Source: Escherichia phage Lw1
DNA length: 64,000 nucleotides
Sequence record: KC801932
Strand: one strand, 5' to 3'
Numbering within the stretch: position 1 is the stretch's first letter; every line of letters begins with the position of its first letter. The translations under genes and the position numbers were made by a program. Of this stretch, positions 29,878 to 38,932 are shown piece by piece. The notes beneath the pieces are model-generated. The model was not told the origin of the DNA and did not search any database. It saw only the letters and a program-made list of their open reading frames with translations.

Positions 29878-30711
29878 TCAACCCCATGTATCGGTTTTAG
29901 GTGCGTATGCTGCAACTTTAGCCACTAATTCCTTATCAAGCTGATCAATGGATTTCTGCGGTTTGCCTTTTGCCTTAACTTTGATGTAATTAGACTTGAC
30001 AACGAACATACCGCCTTTGTCGGATTTCTTAACTTCGCTATCAATACCAACTTTGTTAAAGCTGATCCAGATGTCACCATCCATGTACTGTTTCAGAGAA
30101 TCGCCCATGTTAAGGATCTTAGCCATAGTAAGCGCGGCCCCTTCGTGGGTATCCATGAGGATCTCTTTTGGAACAACACGGTCGCGTTTCAGGTTCTGCT
30201 GCATGGCAATATGAACATCGTTCATTACCCAAACGATATGGATGTTTTCTTTCTTGTACCCCAGCGCTTCAACATCACGGGCGATACTTGCCAGTTTGCT
30301 CATGCTTTTCAGGGTTACGTCAAAAATCAGGTTTGGTTTGCGATCTTCCGGTGCTGCTGCGATACCAGCATAAACACGCGCCTGGTTTTTGTTTGATACG
30401 TTGAAAACGTCTGCGATCACATGGTGAAGTGTTGCAACGTTATCAGGGTTTTTCAGGTTCATTGTTTTAACGTCATGACCTGTTTTTGCTTTAATTTCTG
30501 CTGCTAGTTTGGTGCTACCCATTACCAGCTTTTTCAATGCGTCAACGTCCAGTGTGATCCCTTCGATGCCTAACAGCTTTTCGAGAGTGAAGCCTTTACC
30601 GGAACCCGCACCGCCAGCCAGGATCACGACCTGACCGAATTTCTGATAAGCCTTACCGCCGAAGGTAATCAGCGCTTCATCAAGGCTCACAAAGTCTTTG
30701 AATGATTTCAT
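29878..30711 (-). CDS. nucleoside-monophosphate-kinase-like P-loop protein
   Basis: 277 aa; P-loop ILAGGAGSGKG resembles the adenylate/UMP-CMP kinase G-x-x-G-x-GKG loop; precise substrate unknown. Confidence 0.5.
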   Translation of the reverse strand: MKSFKDFVSLDEALITFGGKAYQKFGQVVILAGGAGSGKGFTLEKLLGIEGITLDVDALKKLVMGSTKLAAEIKAKTGHDVKTMNLKNPDNVATLHHVIADVFNVSNKNQARVYAGIAAAPEDRKPNLIFDVTLKSMSKLASIARDVEALGYKKENIHIVWVMNDVHIAMQQNLKRDRVVPKEILMDTHEGAALTMAKILNMGDSLKQYMDGDIWISFNKVGIDSEVKKSDKGGMFVVKSNYIKVKAKGKPQKSIDQLDKELVAKVAAYAPKTDTWG

Positions 30712-30743: not shown

Positions 30744-30773
30744 TTGACATCGTTTTGCTGATGGATTTATAGT
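30744..30773 (+). promoter_or_regulatory. sigma70-like promoter TTGACA-N18-TATAGT
   Basis: Hexamers at 30744-30749 and 30768-30773, in the divergent intergenic region upstream of ORF 30824. Confidence 0.45.
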
Positions 30774-30823: not shown

Positions 30824-31717
30824 ATGAAACTTGAATTAAACCGCTTCATCAAAGCCGCTGCTGCTGGCGACCAGTCAAAATATACATCACGCCGCAACCA
30901 CACATTGTCAAACGATTTCGCTGACCTGCTTGGGTTCAAGCGCTGGCATACTCCGGTTATGCGTCCCGACTGCGATCCTAAATGGGATTACTTTCGTTGG
31001 AGTATTCCCAAACATGCCATTGTGAAAAAGATCCGTGTGATGTCTTTCCGTTTTCTGTATCCTAACTGTATCATCGAAATCGCAAAAGAACGAGATATCA
31101 CCCTCCCTAATGGTTGGAAACTTGCTGACCTGATGGAAACACTGATCCAGATGCGTAGAGAATACAAAGCTGGATACATCCGTTCCTTTGATAAGTTGGG
31201 TGATTACTCAGACAGCGATAATTACAAAGAATGGCAAATGATCGCAAAGTACCTGTTAAACAGCATATGGATTATTATTTGCGGCAAAGGTTCTGCGATC
31301 AACCTGGGAGGTCATGAAATTATTGCCCGTGCTCGCGAAAAGGTTTGTGATGCGGTAAACAAAATCATTTCTTCAGGTGGCGTTGTTCTGCATGTAAACG
31401 TTGACGAAATCGTGTATTACGGCGAACAGGTGGAAGTTGATAATGTCCATCATGAAAAACACTGGAAAGCTATTTTTACTGGTGGCGGTGCTGCATGGGG
31501 TGATAATATGATAACAAGTGGCCCCATTCCAACGATTAAATTTGACCTTGATGACTGGGAACCGCAAAACAACGGTATTCGTTCGGTCGAGGAACAACGC
31601 GCAATGGCTGAACGTATGGCTGCAACGCGAATCAAACGTTTCACCAATGAAATCATAGAGTATATGAACCGCACAAAAGAAGACGTGTTGAAAGATGTTG
31701 ACTTGTCCGGTGAATAA
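30824..31717 (+). CDS. hypothetical protein
   Basis: 297 aa ORF with GGTGA upstream; no recognised family. Confidence 0.5.
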   Translation: MKLELNRFIKAAAAGDQSKYTSRRNHTLSNDFADLLGFKRWHTPVMRPDCDPKWDYFRWSIPKHAIVKKIRVMSFRFLYPNCIIEIAKERDITLPNGWKLADLMETLIQMRREYKAGYIRSFDKLGDYSDSDNYKEWQMIAKYLLNSIWIIICGKGSAINLGGHEIIARAREKVCDAVNKIISSGGVVLHVNVDEIVYYGEQVEVDNVHHEKHWKAIFTGGGAAWGDNMITSGPIPTIKFDLDDWEPQNNGIRSVEEQRAMAERMAATRIKRFTNEIIEYMNRTKEDVLKDVDLSGE

Positions 31718-31753
31718 CTGTAAGCTGTAATCACTGAAAACAAGGAGATAACC

Positions 31754-32071
31754 ATGAAAACGATTCACTGCCGCGAAGAACACGTTGTTTATTACCACGG
31801 ATCTTGTACTGCTGCTGGGATTGAGAGCATGTTGTTGCCTCCTTGTGCTTCTGAAACTCTGTCTGAAAAAGGCAGAAAGAAAAATCTGGATCGTGTTTTC
31901 TTCACTGCTGACATCGGACTTGCTCGGATCTATGCTGGAAGGGCTGCACGTTCTATAGGTGGTGATCCGGTACTGTATCGGGTTGTGTGTCCGGTTGATG
32001 CTGTATGTATGAACGACGACAAAGGCGCGAGCGTTTACCATGCTGCATGGGCTTTCTGTGAGGAAGTATGA
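31754..32071 (+). CDS. hypothetical protein
   Basis: 105 aa; AAGGAG 6 nt upstream; first gene of a translationally coupled five-gene string. Confidence 0.5.
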   Translation: MKTIHCREEHVVYYHGSCTAAGIESMLLPPCASETLSEKGRKKNLDRVFFTADIGLARIYAGRAARSIGGDPVLYRVVCPVDAVCMNDDKGASVYHAAWAFCEEV

Positions 32072-32235
32072 ATGACCGTGTTTTAGCAGTTCTCGTTTTC
32101 CTTCTGGGTTATCGAGTTGAAGTAATGGGTGGTATCATGGCGATGGACGGTGACCTGACCGCAATTTGGGTTACTGCTTTAGGTGTGATGTTCACGTTTC
32201 TTTCTTTTGCGATTGTTAACGAGGCAAACAAATGA
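32068..32235 (+). CDS. small hydrophobic (two-helix membrane) protein, 55 aa
   Basis: ATG 32068 overlaps the upstream stop (ATGA) and its own stop overlaps the next ATG (ATGA); two hydrophobic segments (VLAVLVFLLGY, AIWVTALGVMFTFLSFAIV); absent from the ORF track because it is under 60 aa. Confidence 0.4.
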   Translation: MNDRVLAVLVFLLGYRVEVMGGIMAMDGDLTAIWVTALGVMFTFLSFAIVNEANK

Positions 32236-32558
32236 AACTATTTCATGTAGTGTATGGCGGTATACGTAATCTTGATGTACCATTGCTTGCTGCGGGAACA
32301 GTTGATACACTTGAAGGTAAGATCGGGAAGCGTTTTAAAACTACCGTATCCGAAATCAAAACGGTGTTTGTTGACCATCCGTCAGATATGGAAAATTTAA
32401 TCAATACTCTGGATGACTTGATGATTCCGTTTGCGGAAGAATTTCATTATCAATCAGGACTGTATTTGATTGTGACATTTGTTCTAAAAAATGTTGACAA
32501 TCGAAATCCAGAAGTGTTAGATTTTGTAAGAAAAATCGATTCAATTAAAGGAAAGTGA
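32232..32558 (+). CDS. hypothetical protein
   Basis: 108 aa; start overlaps the preceding stop. Confidence 0.5.
   Translation: MKLFHVVYGGIRNLDVPLLAAGTVDTLEGKIGKRFKTTVSEIKTVFVDHPSDMENLINTLDDLMIPFAEEFHYQSGLYLIVTFVLKNVDNRNPEVLDFVRKIDSIKGK
32494..32522 (+). promoter_or_regulatory. possible internal sigma70-like promoter TTGACA-N17-TTAGAT
   Basis: Good -35, weak -10; lies inside ORF 32232-32558. Confidence 0.3.
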
Positions 32559-32899
32559 TTATGAAAATCGTTCAGCGTAATATCAGCGAAGTTAGCCAGG
32601 AAGAAAAAGTTCAGATTCATTTCAAATTTAATGATCTGAAACGTGGTTATGCAGAAATTGCCCGTGTTCATGGGCTGGACAATGGGGATATTTATATGAT
32701 TGTCCAAGAAATTGAGCGAATTCGTGCTTTCCGTGCGGAGAACCCGAAAGTAAAACGCGTTCTGCGTCGTGTATATGTCAACAAACACCGCAAAGCGGCG
32801 AAACAAGTTAAAACCAAACGCGAACCGCGTCCAGATAACAAACGTAAAGCAATCAACGGTGCTATGGCGCTGGCTTTCCAGGAAGCGGGTTTAGTGTAA
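32555..32899 (+). CDS. hypothetical basic protein
   Basis: 114 aa; lysine/arginine-rich C-terminal half; start overlaps the preceding stop. Confidence 0.5.
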   Translation: MIMKIVQRNISEVSQEEKVQIHFKFNDLKRGYAEIARVHGLDNGDIYMIVQEIERIRAFRAENPKVKRVLRRVYVNKHRKAAKQVKTKREPRPDNKRKAINGAMALAFQEAGLV

Positions 32900-32908
32900 G
32901 GGGCTGAC

Positions 32909-33439
32909 ATGAGTCGTAGACAAAATATGGAACGTTGGACTGGTGTTGTAACCAGCAGTGTTAAACCAGTTACCGCTGTAGTGAAAGAAGTTGTTGAAGA
33001 AACTCCGGTTAAAACTCAGATGGTTATTTCTCTGAGTGATGAAGAGTTAGAGCATCGTCGCCGTGCGAATCAAATTGAATTCGATCTGCGTATCGCTCGT
33101 TCATACAACAGCAAAAATGATGATGCTCGTAGCCGGAATCTGCAATTTGCTCTTACGTTGAGTGATTGGACCTCTTTAATGAGTCAACCAACTTGCTTGT
33201 ATTCTGGGAAGGTGTTTAGTTCTCGTGGAGATAGCCCGAATTCTCGAACGATGGAACGAATTAACCCGATGCTGGGTTACACTCCAGAAAATACGATCGC
33301 AGTGACAAAAGCCGCTAACAGTGAAAAATCATCACTTGATGCGTTTATGAAGGGTTCGGTAATCCTTCCAGAAGTAAAACTGAAACTGTTACGCAAAGCC
33401 GCGTATCAAATTGAAAAACAATTGAAAATCAAAGGTTAA
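32909..33439 (+). CDS. hypothetical protein with degenerate HNH-like motif
   Basis: 176 aa; C-LYSG...ERINP..GY..EN...V.KAAN.EK aligns to the HNH scaffold (CxxCG...HHIxP..GG...N....C..CN..K) but lacks the catalytic His and most zinc ligands. Confidence 0.4.
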   Translation: MSRRQNMERWTGVVTSSVKPVTAVVKEVVEETPVKTQMVISLSDEELEHRRRANQIEFDLRIARSYNSKNDDARSRNLQFALTLSDWTSLMSQPTCLYSGKVFSSRGDSPNSRTMERINPMLGYTPENTIAVTKAANSEKSSLDAFMKGSVILPEVKLKLLRKAAYQIEKQLKIKG

Positions 33440-33443
33440 TATT

Positions 33444-34490
33444 ATGTTTGTGAAATATTCTTCTCTTACTAACCATTACGAAGGTAAGTTCATTAATGGC
33501 GTGATCATGAATGGCCTTACTGGTGGTGTGTGGTGTGCTCGTGAAAAGATACACGGTACAAACTTTAGTCTGATTACTTCGGACGGTGAAAAAGTCATTC
33601 CAGCAAAACGTAGCGGTGAAATCCTTCCTACTGAACAGTTTTACGGTTGTGAACCTGTCGTTGCAAAATATTCTAATGCTGTGCGCGAGTTGTGGGAAAC
33701 CCTCGCAAATACCTGTGAATATAAGGAATACGCTGATATCGGTTCTCTGGTTGTACAGGTATACGGCGAATTTGCGGGGCGTGGTGTTCAAAAAGATGTT
33801 GATTACGGAGAAAAAGATTTCTATGTATTCGATATCCGTGTGAATGATAAATTTTTACCAGATAACATTGTTGCATCGGCTGCTGTTTGTGTTGGTTTGA
33901 AAATGGCTCCATTGCTGGCATATGGTACGTTTGAAGAGATCCGCGAACTGCCTATCACGTTTGATTCTGTTGTCAACCTGGCTAATTCCGGCGCAATTGT
34001 TGCGCAAAATGGCGTTGAACCTGCGTTCAAAAACTTCATGACTCTGAAAGATGGTGAAGGTGAAAACATCGCGGAAGGTTTCGTGATGAAGCCCGTCGAA
34101 CCTGCTTTCATGCCGAACGGTGAACGCGTTGCGATCAAATGCAAAACGACGAAGTTCACAGAGAAGAAGAACAAGCAAGCGAACCGCTTCAATGCTCCTG
34201 TTGAACTGTCTGAAAATGATAAAGTTAAACTGGATGTGTTTACCTGTTACCTGAACGAAAACCGCGTGAAAAATGTTTTGTCTAAAATTGACAGCGCAAA
34301 TCTCACTGCAAAAGATTTCGGTCGCGTAATGGGCCTGACGGTACAGGATGCGCTGGAAGAAATCGAACGTAATTATGGCCCGTTCCTGGAACAGTTCGAG
34401 AATCCAACGCTGGCGAAGAAAACCTTCACTAACGAAGCGTCAAATCTGGTTCGTGAGAACTGGGGCGCAATCCTGAACAATGAATTTTAA
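33444..34490 (+). CDS. rnlB: RNA ligase 2
   Basis: 348 aa; strong similarity to T4 Rnl2 as recalled (AREKIHGTNFSL, KDFYVFDI, RVAIKCK.SKF.EKK, MGLTVQD.LEE). Confidence 0.88.
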   Translation: MFVKYSSLTNHYEGKFINGVIMNGLTGGVWCAREKIHGTNFSLITSDGEKVIPAKRSGEILPTEQFYGCEPVVAKYSNAVRELWETLANTCEYKEYADIGSLVVQVYGEFAGRGVQKDVDYGEKDFYVFDIRVNDKFLPDNIVASAAVCVGLKMAPLLAYGTFEEIRELPITFDSVVNLANSGAIVAQNGVEPAFKNFMTLKDGEGENIAEGFVMKPVEPAFMPNGERVAIKCKTTKFTEKKNKQANRFNAPVELSENDKVKLDVFTCYLNENRVKNVLSKIDSANLTAKDFGRVMGLTVQDALEEIERNYGPFLEQFENPTLAKKTFTNEASNLVRENWGAILNNEF

Positions 34491-35064
34491 AACGGTTCTG
34501 GACAACGCGAAGACGGCTACCCTGATCGGTAGCCGTGAACCCCCCGAACGTATCGCAAACCTCGCAATCAAGATCGGACGCGCTTTAAGTGATCGGGAAA
34601 TATTCGCTTACTCTGGTGGTGCTCCAGGAATGGATAGTCATTTTTTATTTGATTACTCACCAGAAAGACGGCGTATAATTCTTCCTGAGAACGGTTTTAA
34701 CGGGTTGTACTCAAATGGTAAGGATATCATCGACTATACAGAATACGACACGTACAAAGCCGCTGACGAAGCGAGAAAGGTAGCTGGACACTTCGACAAC
34801 CAAAACGAATGGACACAGCGCCGATATGCTCGAAATTCCATGCAGGTGCTAACCGAACATCTGGATACGCCTACGGATTTTGTGTTATTCTGGGCTGTTG
34901 AAAAAGAGTTTTGTGTGAAAGGCGGTACTGCGATCGCAGTAAGATTGGCCCGACTGTATGGCATACCCTGTTTCAATCTCTGGAATGAACGGGTATTAAA
35001 TGAAGTTTGCGACACTTTGGGGATTAATACTAAACCTCCAACTTTGGATTTTCTCTGGTGCTAA
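34480..35064 (+). CDS. DprA/SLOG-like Rossmann-fold protein
   Basis: 194 aa; YSGGAPGMDSHF resembles the DprA/Smf SG-x-A-x-GID-x-x-H nucleotide-binding loop; start overlaps the rnlB stop. Confidence 0.45.
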   Translation: MNFKTVLDNAKTATLIGSREPPERIANLAIKIGRALSDREIFAYSGGAPGMDSHFLFDYSPERRRIILPENGFNGLYSNGKDIIDYTEYDTYKAADEARKVAGHFDNQNEWTQRRYARNSMQVLTEHLDTPTDFVLFWAVEKEFCVKGGTAIAVRLARLYGIPCFNLWNERVLNEVCDTLGINTKPPTLDFLWC

Positions 35065-36361: not shown

Positions 36362-37795
36362 ATGCAAAAATTTACTGAACTGAATAGCCTGATCACCTCA
36401 ACTGATTCCTACAAAGTGTCTCACTGGATGCAGTATCCACAAGGCACTGATGCAACGATGTTCTATATCGAATCTCGTGGTGGTAAATTTGATGAAGTCG
36501 TAACTGCTGGCGTTAACTACGTTGCGCGGGTACTGGCTGAACCTGTTACCATGAAACAAGTTGAGTTGGCGCGGGTGCTTTACCGTAAGCACTTCGGGAA
36601 AGAAATTTTCAACTATGAAGGATGGAAAGAGATCGCAGAACTGGGTTACACCCCTGTGATTTTCCGTTCTATTCCAGAAGGTACAGTTGTTCCGGTTAAA
36701 AACGCCGTTGCGACCGTGTTCTCTGAGAATCAATTCTCCTGGTTGGCTGGTTGGTTGGAAACAATGACGATTCGCGGTATCTGGTATCCGTCATCTGTTG
36801 CGACTCTATCCCGTGAGTGTAAAAAGGTTCTGGCTCAGTACCTGAATATGACTTCTGACCTGACTGGCGAAGCATATAATGTTACACTGGGTACACGTCT
36901 GCATGACTTTGGGGCGCGGGGCGCGACCTCTGCTGAGTCTGCGGGTATTGGTGGGCTGGCGCACCTTTACAACTTCGTTGGAACTGATACCGTCGAAGGG
37001 ATGATTATGGCAATCAGCCTGTTTGCGGATCATCAGACTCTGTTTGATGAACTGGAAAATGTCGAAGCCGCTGGCATTTCGATTCCTGCTCGCGAACACT
37101 CAACGACGATTTCCTACGGTAAAGAAAACGAAGAAGACGCATACAAAAACAGCATCAAAATGTTCGGTACTGGGTTCTACGCTTGTGTGTATGACTCATG
37201 GGACTATAAAGCCGCTGTTGATCGCATTGCTGAGTATAAAGAGAAAATCATTGCTGCGGGTGGTACTCTGGTAGTTCGTCCAGATTCAGGGGATATGATC
37301 GATAACATCATGTATACCCTTCGTAAATTGGCGCAAATTTTCGGATACACCGTAAACAGCAAAGGTTATAAAGTTCTGCATAACGCAGTTCGTATCATCC
37401 AGGGCGACGAGATCCACGGGCCTGAGACAATCAACCGTGTGTTAAGCTGGATGGAAGCGAACAAGTGGTCAAGCGAGAATATCGCGTTTGGTATGGGTGG
37501 AGGTTTGCTGCAAGAAGTTACCCGCGATACTCAAAAGTATGCCGAAAAGCTGTGCGCTATCCGTGTGAATGGTAAGTGGACAGGCGTTTACAAATGTCCG
37601 AAAGGTTCTGAGTGGAAAAAGAGTAAAAAAGGTTTGCTGATGACCATCACTAACGGTATGGAATTCAAGACCATTGATATTCTGGAAGACTCAATTCCTG
37701 ACGGTTGGTTCGATGCGATGGTGACTTATTACGATAATGGTTACTTGAACACCGACGACACTTTAGGGGAAATTCGTGAGCGTAGCCGGATTTAA
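36362..37795 (+). CDS. nadV: nicotinamide phosphoribosyltransferase (NAMPT / NadV)
   Basis: 477 aa; diagnostic blocks SYKVSHW, HDFGARG, VRPDSGD, IQGD, IAFGMGGGLLQ shared with eukaryotic and bacterial NAMPT. Confidence 0.88.
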   Translation: MQKFTELNSLITSTDSYKVSHWMQYPQGTDATMFYIESRGGKFDEVVTAGVNYVARVLAEPVTMKQVELARVLYRKHFGKEIFNYEGWKEIAELGYTPVIFRSIPEGTVVPVKNAVATVFSENQFSWLAGWLETMTIRGIWYPSSVATLSRECKKVLAQYLNMTSDLTGEAYNVTLGTRLHDFGARGATSAESAGIGGLAHLYNFVGTDTVEGMIMAISLFADHQTLFDELENVEAAGISIPAREHSTTISYGKENEEDAYKNSIKMFGTGFYACVYDSWDYKAAVDRIAEYKEKIIAAGGTLVVRPDSGDMIDNIMYTLRKLAQIFGYTVNSKGYKVLHNAVRIIQGDEIHGPETINRVLSWMEANKWSSENIAFGMGGGLLQEVTRDTQKYAEKLCAIRVNGKWTGVYKCPKGSEWKKSKKGLLMTITNGMEFKTIDILEDSIPDGWFDAMVTYYDNGYLNTDDTLGEIRERSRI

Positions 37796-38084
37796 TATCC
37801 GCGCCAACGATAACGGATCTGTAATCTTCTATAACAATCAGCCCCTTGTTGCTCGCAAGGGGTTTTTTTGTAAGCTGGTTGGTTACGGGTTCAAGTTGGA
37901 GGAAGTGGATAATTCAACTCTGAAAGAGATAGTGCGAATAGCCTATCTCCTGAAAGACAAAAAAGATGAACATAAAGCGGTTGCAATGTTGGAGAAATTA
38001 GGCGAAACTCATTGCTTCATTATCAATCGTGGGTACAAATATGACACGATCGCTTTATTCGAAAAGGGGCTTTGTGAATTATGA
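37776..38084 (+). CDS. questionable ORF spanning the nadV terminator
   Basis: 102-aa track ORF that overlaps the nadV 3' end and contains the terminator hairpin; a shorter real ORF may start downstream of 37868. Confidence 0.2.
   Translation: MSVAGFNIRANDNGSVIFYNNQPLVARKGFFCKLVGYGFKLEEVDNSTLKEIVRIAYLLKDKKDEHKAVAMLEKLGETHCFIINRGYKYDTIALFEKGLCEL
37841..37868 (+). terminator. strong rho-independent terminator after nadV
   Basis: CCCCTTG-ttgctcg-CAAGGGG followed by TTTTTTT. Confidence 0.75.
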
Positions 38085-38932
38085 ATTATTTGGGTGTGAT
38101 TCCCTATACGGGCAACAAGCAGAATTTATTGCCTAAGTTGTTTGAACTCTTTCCAGATCGCAGACATTATCATCGATTCGTTGATTGTTTTTGTGGTGGA
38201 TTGAGTGTGTCGCTAAACGTCCCCAAACCCGTTCTAAGCAACGATTACGATAAGACACTGATTGATGTGTATAAGATGCTTAAACGCGCTCCTGATCTCT
38301 CTGAGGTGCGAGAATTGATTGCTAAGAAGGGACTGAACAAAGAAAACAAGGAAGCGTATCTGGCTTTTCGTGAAGAATACAACCAGCATCGTGATCCGTT
38401 GTGGCTATACGTTCTGATCCTTCATTCGTTCAGCAATGTCAACCGCACCAATGAGAAAGGGGAGTTTAACGCGCATTTCGGATACCGGACGATAAACACA
38501 TCGACCGTGAAGAGGTTCGAACACTTCAAAAATAACGTGGCTGGAATTGAGTTTCGTTCTGGTTCATACTCTGATATTGAAATCAACGATAACGATTTTG
38601 TTTATTGCGATCCTCCGTACCTGATAACCGATGCGGTGTATAATAAATTCTGGAACGCAGATCGCGAACGCGAGTTATATGCTTTCCTTGACTCCCTGCA
38701 TGAGCGGGGCATTTGGTTTGGTTTGTCTAACGTGACGCACCATGCCGGAAAACAAAACGATATCCTGATTGAATGGATGAAGAAATACACCGTTCATAAC
38801 CTGGATAAAAAGTATCTGTTAGGGCAACACACAGAATCCTATGAGCAAAACAAAACACAGGAGGTGTACGTGTGCAACTACCAGAAACGAGAAGTAAATA
38901 CATTCCCACAAACACTAGATGATTTAATGTAG
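38081..38932 (+). CDS. dam: DNA adenine methyltransferase Dam
   Basis: 283 aa; YTGNKQ.LLP, FVD.FCGGLSVSLNV, DPPYLIT and NKFW match recalled T4 Dam. Confidence 0.88.
   Translation: MNYLGVIPYTGNKQNLLPKLFELFPDRRHYHRFVDCFCGGLSVSLNVPKPVLSNDYDKTLIDVYKMLKRAPDLSEVRELIAKKGLNKENKEAYLAFREEYNQHRDPLWLYVLILHSFSNVNRTNEKGEFNAHFGYRTINTSTVKRFEHFKNNVAGIEFRSGSYSDIEINDNDFVYCDPPYLITDAVYNKFWNADRERELYAFLDSLHERGIWFGLSNVTHHAGKQNDILIEWMKKYTVHNLDKKYLLGQHTESYEQNKTQEVYVCNYQKREVNTFPQTLDDLM

Follow-up and report, generated by a model that had tools for sequence, protein, structure and literature searches.

Five small open reading frames (ORFs) follow each other closely on the + strand of Escherichia phage Lw1, between positions 31754 and 33439 of a 64,000-nucleotide (nt) stretch of sequence record KC801932. 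This stretch, analysed as one strand, 5′ to 3′, and at its full length, is called the window below. Here we examine what the five genes encode, whether their close packing reflects a joint function and what can be said about the last of them, ORF5, which by its sequence belongs to the family of the bacteriophage T4 protein Srd.

The five genes

ORF1 (31754-32071) encodes a protein of 105 amino acids (aa) with a minimal ADP-ribosyltransferase (ART) fold. It is followed by ORF2 (32068-32235; 55 aa), a small hydrophobic and probably inner-membrane protein, ORF3 (32232-32558; 108 aa), a soluble protein, and ORF4 (32561-32899), a probable DUF2774 protein of 112 aa when counted from a conserved ATG. 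The string ends with ORF5 (32909-33439; 176 aa), a short Srd homologue that goes by the name ‘postulated decoy of host sigma70’. Each protein is matched end to end by one PHROG family: phrog_2110 (E 3.4e-60), phrog_7619 (E 2.7e-35), phrog_7467 (E 6.8e-60), phrog_7404 (E 8.4e-67) and phrog_4592 (‘decoy of host sigma70’, E 2.9e-76), respectively. In addition, all five ORFs are annotated as coding sequences (CDS) in the phages Miller, Xman, RB43, KP15, leB, phi5 and Margaery.

The ratios of non-synonymous to synonymous substitution rates (dN/dS; Nei-Gojobori method, comparison with seven relatives) are low: 0.05-0.12 for ORF1, 0.24-0.47 for ORF2, 0.10-0.29 for ORF3, 0.04-0.12 for ORF4 and 0.06-0.23 for ORF5. 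For ORF2 and its distant relatives, the proportion of non-synonymous differences (pN) is ~0.2, with the synonymous proportion (pS) saturated at 0.8-0.9. The five ORFs, which a first-pass annotation had delimited from the letters of the DNA, are confirmed by the full-length family matches and the low dN/dS as real genes under purifying selection. Beyond PHROG, the searches were less informative: the five proteins matched no significant family in Pfam, NCBIfam or PADLOC besides a borderline DUF2774 hit in ORF4, and none of them matched a defence-system model.

The 4-kb stretch around the string shares 89% nucleotide identity with the Citrobacter phages Xman, Miller and CfP1 and 85% with RB43/RB16. 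Because of this identity to Pseudotevenviruses, and because an RNA ligase 2 gene follows the string, the window can be assigned to the genome of a Pseudotevenvirus, an RB43-like T4-type phage. The genes of the string are already annotated in >170 related phages and form a normal piece of a T4-type genome.

Packing and translation signals

The first-pass annotation described the five ORFs as chained throughout by overlapping stop and start codons, with ATGA at three of the junctions. This description holds for ORF1/ORF2 (ATGA, 32068-32071) and ORF2/ORF3 (ATGA, 32232-32235) and fails for the other two. ORF3/ORF4 overlap, as GTGA at 32555-32558, only if ORF4 starts at the GTG at 32555, which would give a protein of 114 aa. 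The ATG located six bases past this GTG is the annotated start in Miller, Xman, RB43 and KP15. Furthermore, counted in the GTG version, the PHROG profile of ORF4 starts only at residue 3, and MK is the N-terminus in 18/18 aligned ORF4 homologues. By these comparisons the GTG is not the conserved start. Since the ATG at 32561 is, the string has two ATGA junctions and not three: ORF3 and ORF4 are separated by a 2-nt gap (TGA-tt-ATG), and ORF4 and ORF5 (32899/32909) by a 9-nt gap, with no overlap.

The tight run also extends past the five genes. The RNA ligase 2 gene rnlB (33444-34490, + strand; Pfam RNA_ligase 1.2e-18, T4_Rnl2_C 2.4e-14; phrog_548) starts 4 nt past the ORF5 stop, and is itself overlapped by 11 nt by a DprA-like gene (34480-35064, + strand; phrog_768, E 7e-62, with a weak match to Pfam DNA_processg_A). 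Across the window, stop/start overlaps of the ATGA, TAATG and TGATG types occur 27 times, compared with 1.7 in shuffled sequence, when all ORFs of at least 45 codons are considered, antisense and nested ORFs included. An approximate gene list of the window contains 65 pairs of adjacent genes on the same strand. Overlaps are found in 16 of these pairs, with a length of exactly 4 nt in 8 cases, and another 14 pairs are separated by 0-10 nt. The chaining of the string exceeds chance, yet it is typical of this genome and not special to these genes.

Starts that depend on upstream translation would be expected to have an absent or sequestered Shine-Dalgarno (SD) sequence. Here, an SD-like motif precedes every start: in order from ORF1 to ORF5, AAGGAG, GAGGAAG, GAGG, AAGGAAAG and AAGGGG. 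The RNA in the 80 nt around each of the five starts is no more structured than its shuffles (fold z of +0.05, -0.40, +2.03, -0.02 and +1.71). Ribosome re-initiation could take place at the two ATGA junctions, with no sign that it would serve a dedicated complex.

Plasticity of the string

If the five genes encoded the subunits of one assembly, an uninterrupted order and a common distribution among phages would be expected. In KP15, a Slopekvirus, all five genes are indeed present in this order. However, RB43 has an extra ORF of 45 aa (RB43ORF244w; L003:1903-2040) between ORF2 and its ORF1 (RB43ORF243w, annotated from a later start), and in leB, phi5 and Margaery ORF2 and ORF3 are separated by an additional ORF of 121 aa (leB gp236; L006:3167-3532). 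These lineage-specific insertions carry overlapping stop/start codons of their own, and the packing is left unbroken by the new genes.

The phyletic ranges are also unequal. ORF1 is found in 608 phage records, including phages of Acinetobacter, Aeromonas and Vibrio, and the Srd-like core in 513; both occur without the other members in hundreds of phages. ORF2, ORF3 and ORF4 are each present in about 175-218 records (174 for ORF2 by tblastn, at 67-91% identity, and 177 for ORF3). Identity to KP15 ranges from 93% for ORF1 and 75% for ORF2 to 52%, 61% and 57% for ORF3, ORF4 and ORF5, and the evolutionary rates of the five genes differ several-fold. Moreover, ORF1 has other partners elsewhere. In the Mosigvirus phage a20 its homologue is flanked by the gene 41 helicase and by dmd, sharing 4 nt with the latter. 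A 4-nt overlap is also seen in Acinetobacter phage Konradin, there with another ORF, of 45 aa. T4 srd, in turn, is flanked by modA and dda.1, and the 8-kb T4 stretch searched around it holds no homologue of ORF1-ORF4.

These observations bear on the claim, made in the first-pass annotation, that tight coupling implies stoichiometric expression. In this model, translational coupling would deliver the five products in fixed ratios to a single complex that works on DNA or at the membrane, with ORF5 as a dead, domesticated HNH protein providing the DNA-binding subunit. Its support comes from the two ATGA overlaps and the short gaps, from the co-occurrence of ORF2-ORF5 in the same order in the same ~175 phage genomes, from a local hairpin in which the SD of ORF2 can pair with upstream sequence, and from the basic character of ORF4 (pI 10.4) and ORF5 (pI 9.7). 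Against it stand the genome-wide habit of overlapping genes, an SD of its own for each gene with junction RNA that folds no better than shuffles, the unrelated ORFs inserted in the same overlap style in four relatives, the wide occurrence of ORF1 and Srd without the others, the pairing of ORF1 with dmd, the T4 srd surroundings and the unequal rates of evolution. Nor does a ‘dead’ ORF5 follow from its motif, given the properties of the restriction enzyme PacI discussed below. We therefore regard this model as very improbable. A dedicated complex of five proteins is not supported because the probable operon is longer than the string, the packing is genome-wide, relatives carry insertions and the phyletic ranges are unequal.

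Compared across phages, the string looks like a set of accessory genes gained and lost one by one rather than like the subunits of one complex, and the five products most likely act separately. It resembles other early clusters of T4-type phages, such as the modA-mrh and 61.x-dmd regions of T4, in its dense same-strand ORFs of 45-300 aa, in its 4-nt and 1-nt overlaps, in the SD of each ORF and in the gain or loss of single genes among relatives. The gene content, specific to the Pseudotevenvirus/Slopekvirus lineage, sets it apart from these clusters; nothing essential differs. The finding as first posed matters little, with no five-protein machine indicated.

ORF5 as a short Srd

ORF5 is the orthologue of a gene that in RB43 and other phages is annotated as ‘Srd, postulated decoy of host sigma70 or sigmaS’. 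BLASTP aligns its residues 54-141 with residues 6-89 of T4 Srd (E 5e-10, 31% identity over ~88 residues), a profile built from ORF5 relatives finds T4 Srd at E 4e-15, and phrog_1400 matches ORF5 at E 5.2e-17 in addition to phrog_4592. On these alignments ORF5 can be placed in the T4 Srd family. The two proteins share the homologous core of ~88 residues with an E-R...GY...N...N..[KR] motif, and both are encoded by a gene that is single-copy in a T4-type phage and stands among small accessory genes. In contrast to T4 Srd, which has 248 aa, ORF5 ends ~35 residues past the core and lacks the C-terminal 160 aa (residues 90-248 of T4 Srd give no alignment); it has instead an extra N-terminal part of ~50 residues, made up of a disordered segment and a helix. 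The neighbours differ as well, being ORF4 and rnlB here and modA and dda.1 in T4.

Experimental information on the family comes from T4. According to PMC4980113 and PMC13232886, which cite Qi et al. 2015 (Genetics), the target of T4 Srd is RNase E: it binds to the N-terminal, catalytic half of the enzyme, raises its activity on host mRNA and speeds mRNA decay. This effect on RNase E is the only experimental function reported for the family in these sources, and Srd is the only phage protein reported to activate RNase E. The earlier description of ORF5 as a DNA-binding protein is thus not borne out: its gene is srd, and the sole experiments on the family, so far as those sources tell, concern T4 Srd and RNase E. 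Because its core is homologous to that of T4 Srd, ORF5 would most likely bind host RNase E in its N-terminal, catalytic half and speed host mRNA decay early in infection. RNase E as the target of this short Srd is what we infer from the homology.

The historic name points to a different role. As a decoy or anti-sigma factor, ORF5 would mimic sigma70 or sigmaS and compete for the RNA polymerase core. The name stands in many GenBank records, and hhalign pairs ORF5 residues 49-81 (33053-33151) with residues 372-401 of E. coli RpoD (region 2.1-2.2, ‘...NRGLQF’), a stretch whose RG-x-x-F is conserved in the Srd/HNH-like family. The similarity is, however, not significant (hhalign probability 1%, E 0.054, in a single comparison over 30 residues), and BLASTP of ORF5 against E. 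coli RpoD gives nothing below E 26. Furthermore, the predicted fold of ORF5 is that of HNH proteins and not of sigma factors, and the only function of T4 Srd reported in the sources above concerns RNase E. Sigma70 mimicry, which neither BLASTP nor hhalign against RpoD supports, was rejected as scarcely credible. The RpoD-like stretch may be the origin of the ‘sigma decoy’ name.

The HNH fold of ORF5

Residues 50-143 of ORF5 are matched by the PHROG families ‘HNH endonuclease’ (2.9e-21), ‘endonuclease’ and ‘endonuclease VII’. The AlphaFold model, built from 17 sequences, is confident from residue 41 on. In it, residues 44-75 form a long helix, which is followed by a short one, by a beta hairpin (112-117, 129-133) and by two more helices, at 134-148 and, C-terminally, at 154-175. 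The N-terminal ~40 aa are disordered and variable, and residues 84-148 form a predicted beta-beta-alpha-Me (HNH) core. The first-pass annotation had recognised the spacing of an HNH scaffold that lacks the catalytic His and most zinc ligands. This is confirmed, three of the four zinc cysteines being gone, and the matches to families named HNH endonuclease and the fold of the model are HNH-like. ORF5 has no match to Pfam HNH models at E<=1, 92 diverse family members have none at E<=0.01 and no Pfam family in common, and ORF5 alone matches no PDB sequence.

An exhaustive profile search defined a Srd-like family of 4,881 representative clusters (50% identity) at E<=1e-3, 691 of which remain at E<=1e-10. 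All conservation counts given here refer to its 148 best representatives. The position of the catalytic His of HNH enzymes is Arg117 in ORF5 and an arginine in 148/148. From the CxxC...CxxC zinc ligands ORF5 keeps only Cys96, found in 146/148; the family has T/S and never Cys at position 99, T/S/C at 133 and A/I/V at 136. The acidic metal-ligand residue of HNH proteins is present at position 116 throughout (E in 104, D in 44), and Asn137, at the metal-ligand position of the core helix, is present in 148/148. ORF5 thus differs from canonical HNH/Endonuclease VII-type nucleases (Pfam HNH, HNH_3, Endonuclease_7) by the exchange of His for Arg and by a zinc site reduced to one Cys.

A PacI-type active-site motif

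According to PMC5714182, PMC4081073 and PMC3384342, the restriction enzyme PacI is an active HNH enzyme without the His, whose role is taken over by an omega-loop Tyr, and its single metal ion is held by Asp and Asn. The profile of the Srd-like family matches PacI by sequence at E 2.1e-4, and the motif aligns without gaps between ORF5 (residues 116-140, ERINPMLGYTPENTIAVTKAANSEK), T4 Srd (64-88, ERFDNNVGYIKGNVIAVKKKYNTFR) and PacI (92-116, DRSDSFEGYSPQNARLACFICNRIK). In ORF5 it reads E116-R117-x6-Y124-x3-N128-x8-N137-x2-K140 (33254-33328, + strand), with D92-R93-Y100-N104-N113-K116 as counterparts in PacI, numbered from the HMMER alignment. The likeness therefore extends from D/E-R in place of D-H to the omega-loop Tyr (+8), an Asn (+12), the helix Asn (+21) and a Lys (+24). 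PacI has a single Tyr between its D-R and the helix Asn, and this residue aligns with Tyr124. All 148 representatives have R117, Y124, N128 and N137, and 145/148 have K140. Among 700 six-frame segments of the window the motif is unique to ORF5.

As far as these alignments reach, ORF5, T4 Srd and the whole family keep every catalytic position of PacI and have lost the zinc. The core of ORF5 is a zinc-less PacI-type beta-beta-alpha-Me domain in which E/D-R takes the place of D-H and the omega loop carries a Tyr. Because PacI is active with Tyr replacing His, the loss of His is no argument for lost catalysis in ORF5. The view of ORF5 as a degenerate, domesticated nuclease does not fit an Arg117 that is invariant together with Y124, N128 and N137 and that matches PacI residue for residue.

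The two proteins are nevertheless distinct. PacI, a homodimeric restriction enzyme specific for DNA, has an N-terminal module for DNA recognition as well as two Cys4 zinc sites, whereas ORF5 has one core Cys, no N-terminal Cys cluster and long flanking helices. In the His-Me finger classification of Jablonska et al. 2017, ‘group 20’ (PacI; PDB 3LDY/3M7K) consists of 78 viral (giant-virus), 4 bacterial and 6 eukaryotic sequences (PMC5714182). ORF5, in contrast, belongs to a phage family of ~4,900 clusters described by neither Pfam nor the 2017 classification. Neither Pfam nor NCBIfam holds a model for this Srd/PacI-type family, and our literature search found no paper linking Srd to HNH or PacI.

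ORF5 and the Srd family could be active one-metal nucleases of the PacI type, in which E116 and N137 hold the metal, Y124 serves as base or nucleophile and the substrate is DNA or RNA. The gap-free alignment with PacI and the conservation just described (with 116 always E/D) speak for this, as does the activity of PacI itself, with Tyr for His and metal bound by Asp and Asn (PMC5714182, PMC4081073). Some family members have N-terminal helix-turn-helix (HTH) domains, and several annotators have named orthologues ‘HNH endonuclease’. Cuts that leave 5′-phosphates could, in addition, feed the RNase E pathway that is stimulated by 5′-monophosphates, and so explain why mRNA decay caused by T4 Srd depends on RNase E. 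On the other side, the family has neither of the two structural Cys4 zinc sites of PacI (C96 alone remains, and position 99 is never Cys), and the published effect of T4 Srd is ascribed (PMC4980113, PMC13232886) to binding and stimulation of RNase E and not to cleavage by Srd itself. The conserved polar residues could also serve binding only. Finally, the gene is single-copy and keeps its locus (513 records with 515 places in all), and Srd-like genes do not look like homing endonucleases. On balance, nuclease activity is a possibility that we consider unlikely, though far from negligible.

We would only tentatively put forward the broader proposal that the Srd family, T4 Srd included, is a very large uncurated phage clade of zinc-less PacI-type proteins and that, should these be active nucleases or enzymes that bind phosphate, host mRNA destabilisation may start with an action of Srd itself on nucleic acids. 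If this were true, cuts by Srd that leave the 5′-monophosphate ends preferred by RNase E would replace pure allosteric activation as the mechanism. The presence of a PacI active-site signature, with Tyr for His, in the one phage protein reported to activate RNase E provides a concrete and testable handle on how Srd works.

Some features of the family are mentioned for completeness. In the databases its members are named in turn ‘anti-sigma factor’, ‘decoy of sigma70’ or ‘HNH endonuclease’, and a cluster look-up of 10 distant representatives returned almost no names. Among the best representatives is a protein of 852 aa from the dinoflagellate Polarella glacialis (P0171; NCBI CAE8651769.1) with four tandem Srd-like stretches, which may reflect contamination or an expansion in eukaryotes. 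In several other members there are two copies in tandem, or the N-terminus is extended by 80-120 aa, with HTH matches here and there.

A probable early host-takeover unit

The best-scoring + strand sigma70-type site within 29.5-36.5 kb is a T4 early-type promoter-like sequence at 30744-30773 (TTGACA-18-TATAGT, 11/12 matches). It lies upstream of an ORF of 297 aa (30824-31717, + strand; phrog_7439, E 1.5e-153) that would be the first gene of the operon. This ORF is annotated in every relative examined and has no match in Pfam, NCBIfam or PADLOC. Transcription would probably start at this putative promoter and run from the 297-aa ORF through the five ORFs to rnlB and the dprA-like gene, both promoter use and co-transcription being inferred. 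The five ORFs would thus form the middle of an ordinary early transcription unit for host takeover. No MotA-type or late-type promoter motif occurs within 31754-33439.

Taken together, we favour, with moderate confidence, an ordinary early cassette whose products act independently and in which ORF5 is a short Srd. A number of points weigh against this view. The homology to T4 Srd is limited to ~88 residues, the C-terminal 160 aa being absent from ORF5, and because it covers these residues only, the transfer of function from T4 Srd to ORF5 is weak. The invariant PacI-type constellation suggests an enzymatic or nucleic-acid-binding role beyond the model of an RNase E activator. Promoter-like sites within 29.5-36.5 kb occur at chance level (13 found, 13.5 expected), and for this reason a start of the operon at 30744-30773 is not proven. 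In addition, ORF2, ORF3 and ORF4 co-occur in the same ~175 phages, so that these three could interact, and it is from comparative genomics only that the independent action of the five products is argued.

ORF1 to ORF4

The minimal ART fold of ORF1 is that of the Arr / KptA-Tpt1 / diphtheria-toxin clade, and the protein is predicted to be a minimal enzyme using NAD+. Its invariant residues include H15-G16, Y60, R63 and E103, and S17 is conserved in at least 90%. Among 25 diverse homologues H15, Y60 and E103 never vary, and they may occupy the positions of the H-Y-E triad, formed by an NAD+-binding His, a Tyr and a catalytic Glu. In contrast to Arr and KptA/Tpt1, ORF1 has no sequence-level match to Pfam Arr-ms or PTS_2-RNA; neither these nor other ART models of Pfam and NCBIfam matched at E<=1. 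It also lacks the N-terminal RNA-binding lobe of Tpt1. No PDB chain matched the ORF1 profile by sequence, and a literature search for ‘Arr-like’ phage ARTs found nothing relevant. In T4-like phages of Enterobacteria, Acinetobacter and Aeromonas the identity of ORF1 homologues is 65-99%, and comparison between phages of these three groups and of Proteus gives 65-78%. The gene (also at L010:2501-2818 and L011:2483-2800) sits at differing loci, beside dmd in Mosigvirus and upstream of srd here. Such conservation is unusual for an accessory gene of a phage and, like the PacI signature of Srd, may be a useful side result for phage biologists.

ORF2 had been presented as an unannotated membrane peptide with two hydrophobic helices. 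It is in fact covered by phrog_7619, is recorded as a CDS in each relative's GenBank record opened (among them RB43ORF245w, CPTMiller_00236 and KP15_203) and is found by tblastn in the 174 phage records counted above. That it is real, conserved and hydrophobic (grand average of hydropathy 1.04) is confirmed. As to the helices, there is one strong hydrophobic span of 21 residues at 30-50 (KD19 2.18, residues 32-50), whereas the shorter N-terminal span (5-15) is interrupted by the conserved R16/E18. From this profile, ORF2 is probably a small inner-membrane protein.

ORF3 diverges fast, with 52% identity to KP15, yet keeps an invariant VTFVLKNVD-x-RN block and a VDHP-x-D-x-E block. Conservation of these blocks suggests a specific binding or active site. 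Searches of Pfam, PHROG and PDB gave no informative match; the only PDB hit of the ORF3 profile, collagenase ColT (E 0.027), is marginal and was treated as chance.

The basic protein ORF4 matches Pfam DUF2774 (PF11242) at E 5.9e-6 with 26.8 bits, under the gathering cut-off of 29.2, and a precomputed PF11242 match exists for 22/22 close homologues. A conserved C-terminal motif, N-x-AMALAFQ, follows a spacer of variable length. DUF2774 proteins in general consist of a conserved N-terminal domain of ~75 aa, an insert of 0-40 residues and a short C-terminal motif N-x-AMALAFQ-x-A, a layout that, by sequence, resembles a domain with a tethered interaction peptide. The ORF4 profile matched no PDB entry, and nothing relevant on DUF2774 was found in the literature.

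Neighbouring genes and other signals

Two antisense ORFs were considered and dismissed on account of the strong family matches and low dN/dS of the + strand proteins. The ORF at 31373-32041 (- strand, 222 aa), which covers parts of the 297-aa ORF and ORF1, is probably a by-product of codon usage; the other, of 118 aa, lies at 32450-32806.

The sole strict T4-type middle-promoter motif on the + strand of the window is located at 30485-30510 (MotA box TTTGCTTTA, 11 nt, TAGTTT). This motif stands ~260 nt upstream of the early promoter-like site, within a kinase gene of the opposite orientation, and might provide the same operon with additional transcription in the middle mode. The gene in question (29878-30711, - strand) is divergently transcribed, encodes a Zeta_toxin-like P-loop kinase of 277 aa (Pfam 6e-8), lies directly upstream of the promoter region and is adjoined by NT5C-like nucleotidase genes.

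Downstream on the same strand, 4.3 kb from ORF1, a gene at 36362-37795 encodes a nicotinamide phosphoribosyltransferase of NAD+ salvage (NAMPT_N + NAPRTase), and the RNA ligase 2 gene stands between the two. A theme of NAD+ and RNA repair is possible for this region (compare PMC9503650). The same long + strand run also includes, at 38081-38932, a Dam-type N6-adenine DNA methyltransferase (Pfam MethyltransfD12, 5.5e-36).

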